DNA of 29,348 bases from Promethearchaeota archaeon (GCA_048938295.1 JBHLMI010000001.1:1-29348); one strand, 5' to 3'; positions 1 to 9,085 are shown, numbered from the stretch's first letter. Numbers and translations are program-made. Notes: generated by a model not told the origin, from the sequence alone.

Positions 1-713
1 TCCAATCGGTTTCGCATCTCATCTGCTTCTTGAAGGCATCTGACGTACATCTGATGGGCTTCATCAATTTCAGAACGTGCTGGTCCAAGTCCTTGGGATA
101 ATTGAAGCATACTATGATGGGTTTGTTGAGCTTCATCTACCAGTGCAATCATCCTTTCATGATGTTGTTGTGCTCGGTCCCGGGTTTCCTGTATTTCTTG
201 CCAGAGCTGCTCCATTTCTTCAGACTGATTATGTGGATCGGTCTGCTTTATTGGCGCGGTTTCCATTGACTTTACCAACCTGTCCATCTCATCTAGTAAC
301 GCTCTCTCTTCATCCACTGATAATGAAGTGGTTTGTTGCTTCCATTCCAACTCGCGAAATCGACGCTGCAGCTCTTCTAATGGCACGATGTTTCTCTGGG
401 TATCTCGCTGTTCTTTTAGCTCTTGGAGTTGCTCATGTAATATCCGAGCCTGTTCATTTGCCTCATCGCGGAGTCTTTTCTGCCGTTGAACCTCTTCGTT
501 TAGCTCATCTCTGGTAGCTCGTCGGTTGGTAAGTTCATCTTGTACCACAGGAGTTTCTGCGCGTAAAGCATCTCTTCGATCCCGCCACTCCCAGGCTTGA
601 TTCTTTGTATCCCAGATGCCCCGCATTAATACACGCATAGCTGCCTGCGTTTTACGTAGCTGTTCTAAAATGACTCCAAACTCATCTAGTTCAGTCGCGG
701 AATCCTCTACCAT
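1..713 (-). CDS. Archaeal long coiled-coil protein (COG1340-like), truncated by the window edge
   Basis: Hand translation from ATG at 713 is open to the window edge: MVEDSATELDEFGVILEQLRKTQ...RRATRDELNEEVQRQKRLRDEANEQ...LQRRFRELEWKQQTTSLSVDEERALLDEMDRL... E/Q/R/L heptad-rich. The LEWKQQTTSLSxxEER motif is typical of this archaeal family (recalled). It is missing from the ORF track because it has no stop in the window. Confidence 0.85.
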   Translation of the reverse strand, partial: MVEDSATELDEFGVILEQLRKTQAAMRVLMRGIWDTKNQAWEWRDRRDALRAETPVVQDELTNRRATRDELNEEVQRQKRLRDEANEQARILHEQLQELKEQRDTQRNIVPLEELQRRFRELEWKQQTTSLSVDEERALLDEMDRLVKSMETAPIKQTDPHNQSEEMEQLWQEIQETRDRAQQHHERMIALVDEAQQTHHSMLQLSQGLGPARSEIDEAHQMYVRCLQEADEMRNRL

Positions 714-822
714 AATATCCACATTACAATCGATTATATGCTACGAAGTTCTTGTAGCTCAGGTCCACTTTGCCTAAATCTTTTTGGTCTCTCAGGCGAC
801 AACTCGATATGGTGATGACGTA

Positions 823-2028: not shown

Positions 2029-2817
2029 ATGGCGGATAAATTTGTGCTACTCCTCGAATTTTCCTCAGGAATTATTGAACCCTTACCCCTATCAACAGAA
2101 GCCCTCACCGAAGACCGAATTGTTATTGCCATTGACGAGCTAAAAGAACGCGTCTGGCTGTGGCAAGGCGCCTCCACCTCTCTGGTTGAACGTCGAGCGG
2201 CCCAACGGAAAGCCCGGTCCCTTGTCAGTGCTGGCTATCAACTAGGACCCTATCGCATTGGACGAGATGTCACCAACATAGAAATCATCGATGGAGAAAT
2301 ACTTGACGACCCTGAAATCAAAGGCTTCTATGATCAATTAGTGCACACGTTAAGCCAGCAGTTCAAAATCACCGAAGGCGTTCTTGGTCGGTTTGGTGGA
2401 ACCCCTTCTCCGGCTCCTGAACCTGCTTCTCCTGCACCTCGACCTACAACACCTGCACCTAAACCCACTCCAACAGAAAAAATCCCGCCACCTACCGCCG
2501 CCAAAACTGAAACGGTGACAGTTCAGCCAAGAACTGAAACCGTGGCCCCCGAACCCTCTCGTGACCTACAAGATCTAGGGGTGATTCGTGTAGGGATACT
2601 TATCTCATCAATACTAGACTTTTTCCCAATGTGCTACGTCAGTGCAACAAAAATCGAAAATGGCACTCGGTATTCAATTGAAGATCCCGAGGGAGTTATC
2701 TGCCAAATTGAGGTCAGTCAAGGCTCAGTCCAATTCTTACAACGATACGACTTTCGTGGAAGACGCAATGACATATTGGGGCTGCTCCGTGACCGACTAG
2801 CCTCAGCAGACCTGTAA
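2029..2817 (+). CDS. Asgard-type single-gelsolin-domain protein with Pro-rich linker and C-terminal X domain (1DGelX-like), paralog A
   Basis: LTEDRIVIAIDELKERVWLWQGASTSLVERRAAQRKARSL matches the gelsolin-repeat core (hydrophobic strand-D...hWhWxG...S...ER..A...A). Linker TPSPAPEPASPAPRPTTPAPKPTP; C-terminal helix + beta-meander domain. Confidence 0.78.
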   Translation: MADKFVLLLEFSSGIIEPLPLSTEALTEDRIVIAIDELKERVWLWQGASTSLVERRAAQRKARSLVSAGYQLGPYRIGRDVTNIEIIDGEILDDPEIKGFYDQLVHTLSQQFKITEGVLGRFGGTPSPAPEPASPAPRPTTPAPKPTPTEKIPPPTAAKTETVTVQPRTETVAPEPSRDLQDLGVIRVGILISSILDFFPMCYVSATKIENGTRYSIEDPEGVICQIEVSQGSVQFLQRYDFRGRRNDILGLLRDRLASADL

Positions 2818-3034
2818 TCCCACGAAACTCAGCAAAGCTTTTTGCAGTAACTGTATCAGTTTATCTTGCCAATCAATCCCTTGGGTCAACTTAATAAATA
2901 AAGTATCAAATTCTAAAGCAGACCTTGAGAGAAAATACCTACTCCTCAAGCTTTGGGCGAGTATTTCGGGGTCAAAATCTGTGCACCGAATGCTGTGTTT
3001 CATACTAAATGGGATCCATTAGGATGTTAAGCAC

Positions 3035-3751
3035 ATGACACGAGTTATAATGTTAGAAATAGGGGGCTTGGGCTTTGTTCGGTCAATCCGACCTGGCGCT
3101 CGAAAGCTTCGAGGTGATGTTTGCGTCGCTGTTGTTGACGAAAAAAATAAGGCACTTTGGTTCTGGATGGGTAGCGGCGTACAATACGATAAACGTCGCA
3201 CAGCCAAAGCAAAGGCAGAAGAAATCGCCTTGGAAGGACACCGAATCGGCGATGAATTACTGGGACGTGGCTTCTCACTAGTACCCATTGACCAGGACAG
3301 CATAGATGACCCCACCACCTCAAACAACTACAATAATGTCATTGCCTTGTTAGAATCTCCCATGGAAATCACCACAGAGGCAAATCCCAAAGGCACACTC
3401 ATCATAGGACACCTTCAAGGAGCCACTCCAGCTGTTCAAATTGCTACTAGTGAACCAACCTCAACCACCACTCCAGTTACACCCATTAAAACTACAACCC
3501 CAACAGCGGCAAGGAAAATTTCCAAACTTGACCTAGAAGCTGCCTTGATGGCGATCATACGTGTTCATCAGCAAGTGCACATCGAATATAAGAGCAAAGG
3601 TGACACCGAAGAACTCCTCATTGAAGGTGCTGACGGTCTAACACATCAAATGAAGCGCAGTAAAGGAAGACTCACCTTCAAATGGGACCCAAAAACTCCC
3701 AAAGAACTCAAAGACTTGGTCGCCCACGAACTCAAAGGCCTAGCAGGCTAG
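3035..3751 (+). CDS. Gelsolin-like domain protein with Thr-rich linker and C-terminal domain, paralog B
   Basis: LRGDVCVAVVDEKNKALWFWMGSGVQYDKRRTAKAKAEEI matches the same core and shares the GxxhGxxxhG hairpin with paralogs A and C. Linker TSEPTSTTTPVTPIKTTTPT. Confidence 0.68.
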   Translation: MTRVIMLEIGGLGFVRSIRPGARKLRGDVCVAVVDEKNKALWFWMGSGVQYDKRRTAKAKAEEIALEGHRIGDELLGRGFSLVPIDQDSIDDPTTSNNYNNVIALLESPMEITTEANPKGTLIIGHLQGATPAVQIATSEPTSTTTPVTPIKTTTPTAARKISKLDLEAALMAIIRVHQQVHIEYKSKGDTEELLIEGADGLTHQMKRSKGRLTFKWDPKTPKELKDLVAHELKGLAG

Positions 3752-3778
3752 CCGATAACAAAGCAAAGGCTGGGGATT

Positions 3779-4366
3779 ATGAGCTCAATTCCTTTTGCCT
3801 TGGCTCTAATAACATCCTACGCGCTCATTGGGGCAGGCATTAAACTTGTTGATCAGGCCGTTGATGATCCAAGCTGCATTCGATTCCGCAAGCACCTTCT
3901 GTGGTTGGTTGTAGCTGGCCTAATTATTCTGGTCAACATCTGGGTCTTCCTTGATGTCTACACTGCCGTTTTGGCACTAGGAATCATATTGAGCCTCATT
4001 GCTTCGCGTAAGATTGACAATACCTACTTCATACTCCTCGCAATCACCGTCTTCCCCCTCACTCTCTTTCGATTTTTCGATATTAGCATTCTAATCTTAG
4101 TTCTTCCTACTCTCATTGCCATCTTCATTGCGTCGCTGCTTGACGAGGTGCTTCATGCACACGCATACAAAATTCAAAACGCTGCTTTACGCCGTTTTCT
4201 ACTACACCGTCCTATATTGAAAATTTGCGTTGTGATTCTCCCTTTGTTTGGGTTACTGACGTTTATTCACACAATTGGTTTTTGGTGCTTTGACATCGCG
4301 TATGACGCCTTGGCTTACTATTTTGGCGCCAAATCGTTTCCAAACGCTGAGATTGCCCCGACTTGA
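3779..4366 (+). CDS. Uncharacterised polytopic membrane protein (about 5-6 TM)
   Basis: Several 20-residue hydrophobic segments with polar motifs KLVDQAVDD, SRKIDN, SLLDE and FDIAYD; 27 nt downstream of paralog B. Confidence 0.8.
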   Translation: MSSIPFALALITSYALIGAGIKLVDQAVDDPSCIRFRKHLLWLVVAGLIILVNIWVFLDVYTAVLALGIILSLIASRKIDNTYFILLAITVFPLTLFRFFDISILILVLPTLIAIFIASLLDEVLHAHAYKIQNAALRRFLLHRPILKICVVILPLFGLLTFIHTIGFWCFDIAYDALAYYFGAKSFPNAEIAPT

Positions 4367-4397
4367 CTACTATTATCGGGTCATTCGACACTGGTTT

Positions 4398-4446
4398 GGA
4401 AAGGTTTAAGTCGGCTCGTTTATCAAAGAATGACACCTAGGTGAGG
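4398..4446 (+). promoter_or_regulatory. Putative BRE/TATA element and SD for the 4454 gene
   Basis: GGAAAGG-TTTAAG (4398-4410) lies about 44 nt upstream of the ATG, and AGGTGAGG (4439-4446) lies 7 nt upstream. Confidence 0.55.
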
Positions 4447-4453
4447 CTACATC

Positions 4454-4696
4454 ATGAAAGCAAACATTTCGCTTTCCTACAAGGGGATTAACCGAGAGGA
4501 AACCGCAACTAAAACCGGTTGGATCAATCTCCTCCTCAACCAGCATGGACGCATCATCAGTAAATTACCGTTGGGGGAAGGACGGTACCATTTCATAATC
4601 GAACTCGATGACCTGGAACGATTCACTCAGTCACTTTTCGAATTCACACGCCAGAATCCCTGGCTCCGTGTGGAAAAAGTTTCAGCCCATGCATGA
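4454..4696 (+). CDS. Small (80 aa) protein with an ACT/ferredoxin-like beta-alpha-beta-beta-alpha-beta pattern
   Basis: Fills the gap between genes and has a strong SD. Alternating strand/helix pattern: KANISLSY / TGWINLLLNQH / RIISK / RYHFIIEL / LERFTQSLFEF / LRVEKV. The fold is inference. Confidence 0.65.
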   Translation: MKANISLSYKGINREETATKTGWINLLLNQHGRIISKLPLGEGRYHFIIELDDLERFTQSLFEFTRQNPWLRVEKVSAHA

Positions 4697-4709
4697 AACA
4701 ATATTTTTT

Positions 4710-6143
4710 TCAGGTTAGCACGAACCGCTGCCCTATCCTAGGTGCTACAGCAGGACACCTAACAAGACGTTTAGCTGCATTTACGAGACTCTGACACGCC
4801 TGAGGACTTCCATGAACACAAAAAATTGTCTTTGGTGGATTTTCTCGAAGCGCCGATAAGAACCCATATAACTCCGTCTTATCCGCATGGGCAGAGAAGC
4901 CATACAATCTTTCTACCCGCGCATTCACTCGTTTTCTTTGACCATAGATGCTGACCGTTCTAGCTCCATGGACAATGCGGTGACCAAGGGTTCCTGGAGC
5001 CTGAAATCCAATTACCATCAAATTAGTGTTTTTATCCTCAATTCGCCTGAAGAGATGTCGAACAATACGCCCTCCGTTCATCATTCCGGATCCTGCCACA
5101 ATCATGATCGGGCCCCGTTGTTGGCTCAAGTTATTGCTGTCATACTGGCGTTCAACATATTGCAGGCCTTTGAAATCCAGCGGTGCGTCTCCGGATTCTA
5201 TCAGGTTCCACGTTTCCTCATCAAAGCATTCTTTATGGCGTTTGAAAATCTTGGTTGCTTTGATGGCTAATGGTGAATCGATGGCAACTGGAATGATGGG
5301 AACGCGTGCATTTTCCACTAGTAAGTTAAGGGCATAGATGAGGGCTTGTGTGCGACCAATGGCAAAGGCTGGCACCAAGATGTGGCTGTGGTGTCGATGG
5401 GTTTTGATGATGATTCGTTCAAACCGCTGAATTGCTCTTGAAAGTAGCTCGTGGTTCCGATTTGCATAGGTGGATTCGCACATTAGGTACGTCGCAGCCG
5501 AGGGGAAATCTGGATCCCGAATAATGGGGGCGTTCCTTCGACCAACGTCTCCAGTGTCAACGAGGTGAATCACCTTTCCATACTCCTCAATCCATGTTTC
5601 GACAATCGAGGACCCAAGAATATGCCCGGCATCTCGAAACTGCAAGGTTACGTTCCCAGACAGCGCTTTTTTCTTTCCATACTTGACAATCCGCAGCTGT
5701 CTGATAGTCTGTTCAGCATCGGGGGTCGTAAACAAGGGCTCTGTTGAATAGATATGATCACTTGTCTGGGGTTGCCTATTTGACCGTGCTCGTGTCGCCT
5801 CTTCCTCTTCACTTTCAGCAACATCTCTGAGAAGCAGCGAACACAGCTCGGAGGTGGCAGCAGTAACGTAGATGGGTCCGCGGAATCCTGCACGCACAAG
5901 GATAGGTAGCCGTCCACAATGATCAAGATGCGCGTGAGATAAAATAGCATAATCGATGGCAGATGCATCGAAGTGTAGGGTTTGGTTGCGCTTATGCTGC
6001 TCTGCCGGGTTGCCTTGAAAAAGGCCACAATCAATGAGAAAATTCGCAGTCTTGGTCTTGATTTGAAACAGGCTACCTGTAACGGTGTGTCCAGCACCAT
6101 GAATGGTTAGTTCCAATATGGAAAGCTCCTTTTTGGAAATCAA
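4710..6143 (-). CDS. Beta-CASP metallo-beta-lactamase ribonuclease (bacterial YSH1/TTHA0252-like, no KH domains)
   Basis: Motifs GxxxTVTGS, IDCGLFQG, SHAHLDHCGRLP, AGHILGS, TGDVG, ESTYA, PAFAIGRTQ, GSGMMNGGRI, GFQAPGTLG, FSAHAD and VHG. The start may be TTG 6116 (SD AAGGAG). Confidence 0.93.
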   Translation of the reverse strand: MISKKELSILELTIHGAGHTVTGSLFQIKTKTANFLIDCGLFQGNPAEQHKRNQTLHFDASAIDYAILSHAHLDHCGRLPILVRAGFRGPIYVTAATSELCSLLLRDVAESEEEEATRARSNRQPQTSDHIYSTEPLFTTPDAEQTIRQLRIVKYGKKKALSGNVTLQFRDAGHILGSSIVETWIEEYGKVIHLVDTGDVGRRNAPIIRDPDFPSAATYLMCESTYANRNHELLSRAIQRFERIIIKTHRHHSHILVPAFAIGRTQALIYALNLLVENARVPIIPVAIDSPLAIKATKIFKRHKECFDEETWNLIESGDAPLDFKGLQYVERQYDSNNLSQQRGPIMIVAGSGMMNGGRIVRHLFRRIEDKNTNLMVIGFQAPGTLGHRIVHGARTVSIYGQRKRVNARVERLYGFSAHADKTELYGFLSALRENPPKTIFCVHGSPQACQSLVNAAKRLVRCPAVAPRIGQRFVLT

Positions 6144-6161
6144 GGTGTTTGTAGTTAGAGG

Positions 6162-7094
6162 CTAGGCAAAGAGGTCGAATTCAGAGGATCCACCTTTCTC
6201 ATCTTCTTCCTCTTCCGGTTCCTCTTTCTTGACGGAAGTTGGCTCTGCGTCTTGCTTATTATCCTCTTTTGGTTGTTGACTGATTTGGGATAATTGTTCA
6301 CGCATGGAATCAACCACTGAAGCCGGCTTTTCGTCTGTTGAAGTTGTTGGTTCAGCAATTTGTAAGGTGGACGCAACGTAGATTTGTCCATCTGAAGTAA
6401 GTTGGGGTTGCTGTCCAAAACATCGGGCAAACGCATCGATATCTTCCTGAGTTGCCCCTCGTATCTCAGAAAACAGAATTGCGTCTCCTTGGCAGATGAA
6501 GCGTAATTGTAAACGGAGTACGGAGACCTGAAATTCGCTAGGTCCAATTGGATTCATTGTTGCTTGTCCGTAACAATCTGATACCGCGAAAAGAACTTTT
6601 GTCGCCAATTGCTCCTCATATGTTAAAATCCGACGACGAATGGGGGTGACTTGGCGGATGGGTTCAGGTACTATTGTCTGTTCAATGACTTCGACTTTAT
6701 CTTGGAAGGATTCTTCAAATGTCGAAATCTCAACCTCTTCTTTGGTGACAACAAGATAATCAGAAGCCTTTGGATGTTTTTCAAGGAGCTTGTTGAGGAG
6801 AGCCACCTTGGGGCTATTCAAATTTCCTGGCACTTCAATGAAGGTTGTGCATTTTGTGCCAAAGTGGGTATCTCCGACATGGGTGCCATTTTTCATGATA
6901 AAGCGGGCCTGCCGCAGTGCAGTGGTCCGCTGTAACATGGTTGTCCCACGTCCTAGCCATACCCAGACAATGCCCTCGGTCTCGTCAACAATGAGTATTG
7001 ATCGTCCGTCTACTAGATGCTTGGGATTCCAGTGGAGCGGTTGCATCTCGCCCCCTTCGCCCAGGACTTCAATCATCCCGATGTACTGTTTCAT
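6162..7094 (-). CDS. Gelsolin-like domain protein with C-terminal domain and acidic tail, paralog C
   Basis: LVDGRSILIVDETEGIVWVWLGRGTTMLQRTTALRQARFI matches the gelsolin core; the protein ends EEPEEEEDEKGGSSEFDLFA. ATG 7094 follows SD GGTGAT; the track start GTG 7106 is an alternative. Confidence 0.7.
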   Translation of the reverse strand: MKQYIGMIEVLGEGGEMQPLHWNPKHLVDGRSILIVDETEGIVWVWLGRGTTMLQRTTALRQARFIMKNGTHVGDTHFGTKCTTFIEVPGNLNSPKVALLNKLLEKHPKASDYLVVTKEEVEISTFEESFQDKVEVIEQTIVPEPIRQVTPIRRRILTYEEQLATKVLFAVSDCYGQATMNPIGPSEFQVSVLRLQLRFICQGDAILFSEIRGATQEDIDAFARCFGQQPQLTSDGQIYVASTLQIAEPTTSTDEKPASVVDSMREQLSQISQQPKEDNKQDAEPTSVKKEEPEEEEDEKGGSSEFDLFA

Positions 7095-7191
7095 TTTATG
7101 AATCACCGCTAGACCGTGCCATGCTCATGCAGCCACACGCTGTAAGCTCTTGTTACATATGAGGTGGGGAAGCCTATAAGAAATTGTTGTG

Positions 7192-8575: not shown

Positions 8576-9085
8576 TTAGACTTCGCGCAATTCCCAAACA
8601 CAAGCGTCGGCCCCCCATGTCTTGCATTGGACCTCTTCGCATTCGCTGCTGAAGCCACGGAGGGTTAGGACGTGTTGAAAGACGCCACTGAGGATGTTGC
8701 AGTATTTCAGGCCATGGAATTCATCGGACATTCGGATGTTTTCACAGATGGGGCAGTCGTTAAAGACGTATACAATTTTTCTTTCAGCTTTGTCGTAGAA
8801 CGCGTTGTCAAAGGCTCTACCTAGCATTACGCGTGTTGCTAGGGTGAAGGTGTCGAGGAATCCTTCGAAGGTGGTTGCATGTTCTCCGATGGTATCGCTG
8901 TATTCGAATAAGAGGGTTTCTGCCATTGCGTTGCCTAATCGCAATAATTTTTGATTTGCTATGTTGATATCGCCTTTACAGGATTCAAGGACATCATCGA
9001 TAACTGCTGCGACTAAAGCTTGGAATGCATTTAGTGAGGTTTTTTGCATTTTGAAGTGCCAACCGAGCCAACCTTTGACACCCAT
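8576..9085 (-). CDS. Stand-alone V4R (4-vinyl reductase)-domain protein
   Basis: Contains CPIC, YCNILSGVF and EVQCKTWGADACVWEL, the V4R Cys pattern. The exact start is uncertain. Confidence 0.85.
   Translation of the reverse strand: MGVKGWLGWHFKMQKTSLNAFQALVAAVIDDVLESCKGDINIANQKLLRLGNAMAETLLFEYSDTIGEHATTFEGFLDTFTLATRVMLGRAFDNAFYDKAERKIVYVFNDCPICENIRMSDEFHGLKYCNILSGVFQHVLTLRGFSSECEEVQCKTWGADACVWELREV

Follow-up and report, generated by a model that had tools for sequence, protein, structure and literature searches.

Asgard archaea encode proteins carrying gelsolin-homology (GH) domains that bind and regulate actin in vitro (PMC7444086, PMC9433394), with up to nine of them reported per genome, and in L. 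ossiferum, co-precipitation with Lokiactin is reported for five of its nine GH proteins (PMC13716822). Among these, 1DGelX of Thorarchaeota severs actin and harbors a GH domain that is 35% identical to ProGel (PMC7444086), followed by an X region described as coiled-coil or disordered, with gel migration at the size of actin (PMC7444086; bioRxiv 10.1101/2025.11.30.690169). The label 1DGelX is loosely used and covers several proteins per genome (PMC9433394). Here, we describe three genes, named A, B, and C, located between positions 2029 and 7106 of a DNA stretch of 29,348 nucleotides deposited as Promethearchaeota archaeon (GCA_048938295.1, JBHLMI010000001.1:1-29348; the whole stretch analysed is called the window). 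The N-terminal domains of all three gene products are true but very diverged gelsolin-type domains, and by analogy to described Asgard proteins we consider it probable, at roughly 0.6, that A, B, and C serve as additional regulators of the actin skeleton in this archaeon.

A preceding reading of the window from its sequence alone had placed three gelsolin-domain paralogs in this region, and an open reading frame (ORF) call recovered all three where that sequence-only reading had put them. The motifs it had quoted, i.e., IAIDE/AVVDE/LIVDE, VWLWQG/LWFWMG/VWVWLG, a basic helix, and a GxxhGxxxhG hairpin, were all present in the translations of A, B, and C, as were the Pro-rich linker of A, the Thr-rich linker of B, and the acidic tail of C. 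For gene C, the ORF stood as proposed but its start was shifted, since the database record and the C homologues begin at the ATG at 7094 (MKQYIG...), which is therefore the most likely start instead of the GTG at 7106.

The domain common to the three products comprises about 115 residues. Pairwise BLASTP comparison resulted in E-values of 1e-12 (A-B), 2e-11 (A-C), and 6e-7 (B-C) at 27–34% identity, and hhalign of N-domain profiles, based on 33–35 orthologues per gene, revealed probabilities of 98.9% (A-B), 98.3%, and 97.0% over the first 85–102 residues, so that the mutual homology of the three N-domains was borne out by profile comparison. Homologues (67 for A, 60 for B, and a number within about 60–67 for C) were all unnamed or annotated as 'hypothetical protein', and no precomputed Pfam domain was found on any of these roughly 60–67 homologues per gene. 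Annotation pipelines had been expected to leave the more divergent paralogs as hypothetical, which turned out to be true of all three. Within the families, folded parts displayed a mean identity of 66–75%, while linkers reached only 16–33% and varied in length; in the gene A family, the values were 75% for the N-domain, 67% for the X domain, and 33% for the linker. Based on this conservation of the folded domains compared to the linkers and on a maintained gene order (see below), A, B, and C are real genes under constraint.

Searches with hmmscan against Pfam and NCBIfam revealed no significant match for A, B, or C, and single sequences or single-family profiles compared to the Protein Data Bank (PDB) resulted in sub-threshold hits only (E 0.02–1.5; family profiles E 0.02–0.1). 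The profile lists were headed, in a constant register, by gelsolin-family chains, namely Thor ProGel (7C2F), Heimdall and Loki 2DGel, and villin. A joint profile of the N-domains of A, B, and C (alignment A4) then detected villin (2.9e-11), Loki 2DGel (5.4e-7), and horse gelsolin (2.4e-6) among the PDB sequences, and altogether 28 gelsolin-family chains at E <= 0.05, so that with this joint profile the link to gelsolin is now significant at the sequence level. AlphaFold2 models of A and C built from the family alignments showed predicted local distance difference test (pLDDT) values of mostly 83–94 in the folded parts and displayed a mixed beta sheet in the centre, packed between one long and one shorter helix, the arrangement of the gelsolin fold. 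Nearly all matches of both models in a Foldseek search against PDB were gelsolin-family entries, the best structural and profile matches being ProGel, 2DGel, gelsolin G2/G3, and villin. Thus, the Foldseek search on the models and the A4 profile search agree on the gelsolin-like nature of the N-domains that had been proposed. The DWG motif is conserved: every member of the three families has W45 and G47, and D36 occurs in 33/33 members of the A family, 30/35 of the B family, and 33/35 of the C family.

Downstream of the linkers, the models revealed a helix, four strands, and a helix for residues 180–259 of A and a helix, four strands, a helix, and a strand for residues 159–240 of C, both predicted as confident alpha/beta folds (pLDDT 83–94). 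Profiles of the second domains of the three families made from Hermodarchaeota only showed no significant likeness to each other or to the GH domain in hhalign. After the X-domain profile of A had been broadened with 43 representatives of other lineages, the C-terminal domain of B matched it with an hhalign probability of 89.9% (E 1.7e-6; hmmsearch E 3e-4), and the X domain was also found in a member of the B sister group (E 5.8e-12). The second domain of C resulted in no alignment to the same broadened profile (E 0.11). Judging from these profile matches, the X module of A and B is the same small alpha/beta domain, and the second domain of C is either a different one or has diverged beyond recognition. 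The sequence-only reading had assigned the same helix/beta-meander/helix domain to each paralog: this holds for A and B at the sequence level, while C shares only the order of secondary structure elements with the X domain of A, apart from the fact that Foldseek places the models of A and C on the same AlphaFold DB clusters with alignments spanning both domains. Language-model look-alike scores for the second domains ranged from 0.78 to 0.81, which is lead level. In the short helix following the second domain of C, S259, R265, and Q267 never vary and M264, L268, and S269 hardly do, and the last 10 residues of the protein have a mean identity of 54% compared to 16% in the acidic stretch before. 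This tail (6165-6323, minus strand) looks like a short linear binding motif; it had been labelled WASP CA-like, of which the conservation alone was confirmed.

The residues of the Ca2+ site were mapped via an HMMER alignment to Heimdall 2DGel. D29 and E54, the type II Asp/Glu pair, were found in 33/33 members of the A family. In the B family, the Asp is kept and the Glu is replaced by K, L, N, or S, in C the two sites are occupied by G and Q, and in the wider family the Glu site mostly harbors A, T, K, or S. As A is the only paralogue with the Asp/Glu pair, it is possibly Ca2+-responsive; going by these residues, A may be Ca2+-sensitive and B and C Ca2+-independent.

With regard to distribution, matches at E <= 1e-5 were obtained in 193 of the 251 Asgard genomes sampled. 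These include all 18 further genomes from the family to which the window belongs, typically with three strong copies each, and genomes of other families usually had one strong copy (E 1e-17 to 1e-31) in ORFs of 250–330 amino acids (aa). Named members belong to Lokiarchaeota (Harpocratesius), Odinarchaeia, Helarchaeota, and Freyarchaeota. Against 1.84 billion cluster representatives, A4 detected 183 proteins at E <= 0.001, of which 93 reached E <= 1e-10. The best 90 or so mostly comprised 200–340 aa and began with the domain, while roughly one fifth were shorter. From E 1e-9 on, this library also contained larger unnamed proteins (459–1,417 aa with 3–6 matched stretches), which, judging from length and stretch pattern, may be gelsolin/villin-like.

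Domain-specific hidden Markov models (HMMs) showed that most representatives of other lineages score best with the N-domain of A and carry the A-type C-terminal domain, and that five clusters of 209–224 aa resemble B; among the representatives compared, the second domain and tail of C were confined to the Hermodarchaeota family, and the homologues of C came from Hermodarchaeota-type records only. In a tree of the N-domains, A falls within the representatives of other lineages, B forms a group with the five B-like clusters (support 98), and the stem leading to C is long and unresolved. A scan of the phylum with P0268, which belongs to the sister group of B, resulted in no match at E <= 1e-20. 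Altogether, A is the Hermodarchaeota orthologue of a pan-Asgard divergent GelX-type family that is 'hypothetical' wherever it is named, and A, B, and C are anciently diverged paralogues (25–30% identity) of one Asgard-wide GH subfamily missed by domain libraries. The proposed local expansion of the family did not hold, considering that the paralogues are old, that A is a pan-Asgard orthologue, that sister clusters of B exist beyond its Hermodarchaeota family, and that synteny is fixed over two genera. The gene order, which is kept in 17 genomes down to 42–49% identity of A, B, and C, likewise points to an old fixed arrangement and no recent local expansion.

If A, B, and C regulate actin, the GH domain would bind archaeal actin in the same way as ProGel and gelsolin G1, with its long helix in the cleft between subdomains 1 and 3, and the C-terminal modules would provide each paralogue with another second contact, be it the filament side, another copy, or another partner. 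Based on these differing modules, the three paralogues may act as different actin regulators. In support of such a role, the genome also harbors a gene for actin, two for actin-like proteins, and two for canonical 2DGel. Several points weigh against it. Actin binding by A, B, and C is what we infer from homology and from the published behavior of other Asgard GH proteins, and the structure models cover A and C, so that B probably belongs to the gelsolin fold by its homology to these two. Matches to PF00626 stayed under the gathering score of 21 bits in the genome scan (11.8 bits for A, 11.7 bits for C, no match for B), a miss that we attribute to the limited sensitivity of the model and do not count against homology. 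Ca2+ control is speculative, since the type II pair of A is not ancestral to the wider family, and the flanking and interleaved genes, which encode an M24 peptidase, a membrane protein common among archaea, a beta-CASP RNase, and HMG-CoA reductase, give no cytoskeletal context. It might be argued that the gelsolin fold is real but serves a role apart from actin, as a generic interaction module like the gelsolin-like domain of Sec23/Sec24, e.g., in membrane trafficking or with another filament. We regard this as somewhat unlikely, since the closest structure and profile matches named above are actin-binding gelsolins, the structural DWG motif is retained, and all Asgard GH proteins tested so far were active on actin (PMC7444086, PMC9433394).

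A, B, and C could also simply be orthologues or close paralogues of Thorarchaeota 1DGelX, in which case their function, Ca2+-independent severing, would be known. Though the gross architecture of one GH domain and a C-terminal region is the same (PMC7444086) and the loose application of the label to several proteins per genome (PMC9433394) would accommodate them, A and C are only 11–19% identical to ProGel, compared to 35% for the published GH domain, and possess an alpha/beta X module instead of a coiled-coil or disordered region. Moreover, two further single-GH proteins encoded in the same genome, D (287 aa) and E (318 aa), with a mutual identity of 36%, appear to be the better candidates: for D, direct matches to ProGel and 2DGel were obtained (E 1.4e-5 to 3.7e-7, with E 1.4e-5 and an identity of about 27% for ProGel), both D and E are nearer to ProGel, and they look closer to published 1DGelX than A, B, and C do. 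The A-type X-domain profile revealed no match to the C-terminal regions of D and E, and the N-domain tree placed both apart from the clade of A, B, C, and about 70 cluster representatives with a Shimodaira–Hasegawa-like approximate likelihood ratio test (SH-aLRT) support of 97. Identity with 1DGelX is thus very unlikely, and from the membership of this family that had been suggested, the single GH domain followed by a non-GH region remains, while the low identity to ProGel and the alpha/beta X module speak against it; this assignment is judged by the published description. For gene C, a cryptic 2DGel-like gelsolin with a degenerate second GH domain is also conceivable, as the strand order of its second domain (four strands, helix, strand) is like that of the GH core, Foldseek aligns 250–310 columns of the model to multi-domain gelsolin/villin, and one VIA row aligns 155 residues over two villin domains. 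When the second domains were compared to GH profiles, hhalign probabilities were 0.1–1.2%, and whole-model searches gave no gelsolin match restricted to those residues; we hold this explanation to be a shade less likely still.

Further gelsolin and actin genes were found elsewhere in the genome. Pfam detected two canonical two-domain gelsolins (2DGel) on contigs C4 and C8. Together with A–E, this amounts to seven clear gelsolin-domain genes, which agrees with the published number of up to nine per genome (PMC13716822), in addition to one weak candidate, ORF F (109 aa, G000 C60:1287-1439; L012:1191-1520, minus strand). The latter matched A4 weakly (E 0.003), including the helix and GY-hairpin region, and may be a ProGel-sized or degenerate member. 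The canonical actin gene is split over two contig ends (C9:53228-53734 and C18:11406-11822), probably by an assembly break, while an intact actin gene was found in a genome of the same genus (L059:1474-2616). Two actin-like genes lie side by side on contig C53. The features of genes A, B, and C, the adjoining membrane protein gene, and genes D and E are listed in Table 1.

Table 1. Coordinates of the GH genes, their domains, and the neighbouring membrane protein gene (window positions unless a contig is given; nt, nucleotides).
Feature	Position	Strand	Description
Gene A	2029..2817	+	262 aa, P0001; ORF call
Gene A GH domain	2029..2394	+	aa 1-122; DWG motif D36/W45/G47; type II Ca2+ pair D29/E54
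Gene A Pro/Thr-rich disordered linker	2395..2556	+	aa 123-176; pLDDT <50 over aa 133-176
Gene A C-terminal X domain	2557..2814	+	aa 177-262; helix, four-stranded beta meander, helix
Gene B	3035..3751	+	238 aa, P0002; two-domain architecture as in A
Gene B GH domain	3035-3388	+	aa 1-118
Gene B Thr-rich linker	3389-3514	+	aa 119-160
Gene B X domain	3515-3748	+	aa 161-238
Multi-pass membrane protein, 195 aa	3779..4366	+	27 nt downstream of B; conserved neighbour, context only
Gene C	6162..7094	-	310 aa, P0131; ORF open to GTG at 7106 (314 aa)
Gene C GH domain	6738..7094	-	aa 1-119; DWG motif kept; G at Asp site, Q at Glu site
Gene C second folded domain	6366..6644	-	aa 151-243; helix, four strands, helix, strand
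Gene C conserved short helix	6279..6323	-	aa 258-272, SVVDSMREQLSQ-type; predicted helix 260-272
Gene C C-terminal aromatic motif	6165..6194	-	GSS-[DE]-F-[DE]-L-F type, after variable acidic stretch aa 273-300
Gene D	G000 C6:22261-22518 (L010:925-1788)	-	Pro-rich linker and C-terminal region
Gene E	G000 C32:109426-109572 (L011:766-1722)	-	Pro-rich linker and C-terminal region

Related loci were gathered with family alignment A1. Genes are arranged in the order DUF7121 coiled-coil protein, M24 peptidase, A, B, membrane protein, an 80-aa ORF and a beta-CASP RNase (both variable), C, and HMG-CoA reductase, and this order was kept in all 17 recovered species-level Hermodarchaeota genomes. The DUF7121 coiled-coil protein (E 1e-20; 3-722, minus strand) runs off the start of the window and occupies the same position in 16 of the 17 related loci, i.e., in all that reach far enough upstream. 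The membrane protein gene follows B in 13 of the 17 loci, which are all those whose contig extends there, and lies between B and C in the 11 loci reaching C. Its product revealed no Pfam or NCBIfam match, and its nearest Atlas clusters consist of hypothetical archaeal proteins of Thermoplasmatota and Methanobacteriota (scores 0.94–0.96), so that it is not Asgard-specific. A functional tie between B and the membrane protein was dropped for this reason, as the family is widespread in non-Asgard archaea.

The 80-aa ORF (4454-4696, plus strand) is without a family match, ranks with the most conserved genes of this neighbourhood (82–95% identity where A, B, and C are at 66–91%), and was not found in the three divergent loci L029–L031, which cover this interval. 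Between the membrane protein and C, the window harbors the gene for a CPSF73-like beta-CASP/metallo-beta-lactamase RNase (4710-6143, minus strand), which is missing in L029–L031 and in one closer genome (L028). Given its absence from L028–L031, the RNase gene seems to have been either inserted into or lost from an older arrangement of A, B, membrane protein, and C. A 169-aa protein (8576-9085, minus strand) adjoins HMG-CoA reductase and is 86–95% conserved in relatives; sub-cut-off matches to V4R and a TRAPP component make a TRAPP/V4R-type protein possible. The region had been put forward as an actin-regulation locus, which does not fit its neighbours, as these are unrelated housekeeping genes, and an actin-regulation operon was rejected on the same grounds.

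The suggested Asgard origin is in line with the relatives carrying this block, which are mostly Candidatus Hermodarchaeota or Hermodarchaeum, with a few close ones bearing other Asgard labels. The same syntenic block, at 66–91% protein identity, appears under the differing NCBI labels Hermodarchaeota, Promethearchaeota, Thorarchaeota, and Odinarchaeota (L018, L021, L022, L033, and others), so that the source labels of these metagenome-assembled genomes (MAGs) are unreliable for taxonomy. No RNA datasets were listed for 2029-7106; the four best-matching datasets (42–96% of words) were runs of one sediment-metagenome study.

As to novelty, multiple gelsolin-domain paralogues in Asgard archaea, including proteins with a single domain plus X, are already known (PMC7444086, PMC9433394, PMC13716822), and calling the three genes an undescribed system, as the sequence-only reading did, over-rated them, given that up to nine paralogues per Asgard genome are on record (PMC13716822). 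We found no published description of a Pfam-invisible pan-Asgard branch with a compact alpha/beta X module that is triplicated in a fixed Hermodarchaeota synteny. Published numbers of gelsolin homologues obtained from domain annotation (InterPro, PMC13716822) may miss the subfamily of A, B, and C. As it occurs in about three quarters of the sampled Asgard genomes, is annotated as 'hypothetical', and is invisible to Pfam, such numbers would be too low if it was missed. In addition, the family illustrates a second route by which a single gelsolin domain can be extended, namely by an added small folded module instead of domain duplication. The practical gain is modest and consists of a defined list of candidates for biochemistry, among them orthologues from cultured Lokiarchaeia.

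A more far-reaching scenario, which we deem quite unlikely, would have the A/B/C type as a separate ancient GH branch stemming from the Asgard ancestor, in which the compact X domain acts as a new dimerisation or filament-side-binding module and yields bivalent severing or cross-linking, unlike the duplication route of 2DGel and eukaryotic gelsolins. In Hermodarchaeota, the tasks would then be split between a Ca2+-sensing A, a Ca2+-blind B, and a C whose acidic, aromatic-ended tail and conserved helix recruit a further partner.

Compared to known systems, A, B, and C share features with each of the described types of gelsolin. The 11–19% identity of A and C to Thorarchaeota ProGel was obtained in structural alignments with 7C2F chain B/D (PMC7444086). 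ProGel consists of a single domain (about 90 aa) standing on its own; in A, B, and C, the second helix is followed by an extra beta hairpin, and the GH domain by a long linker and another folded domain. Like 1DGelX/GelX proteins of Thorarchaeota (PMC7444086) and B35_GelX of L. ossiferum (PMC13716822), they consist of one GH domain, a linker, and a non-GH region and occur several times per genome; as judged by the published description, they are set apart from 1DGelX by a far more diverged GH domain and a compact alpha/beta X module. The GH domain is also homologous to that of Asgard 2DGel (7C2G, 7C2H, 7WHF, 7WHG; PMC7444086, PMC9433394), reached by the profile at E 5.4e-7 for the Loki protein, and A retains both the Asp and the Glu from which the type II Ca2+ site is built in 2DGel domains. 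In contrast, 2DGel has two GH domains detectable by Pfam and is under Ca2+ control, whereas B and C are without the full ligand pair. With eukaryotic gelsolin, villin, and adseverin (PF00626), which A4 reaches significantly, A, B, and C have the fold and the DWG motif in common, but carry one repeat per protein where the eukaryotic gelsolins carry three to six.

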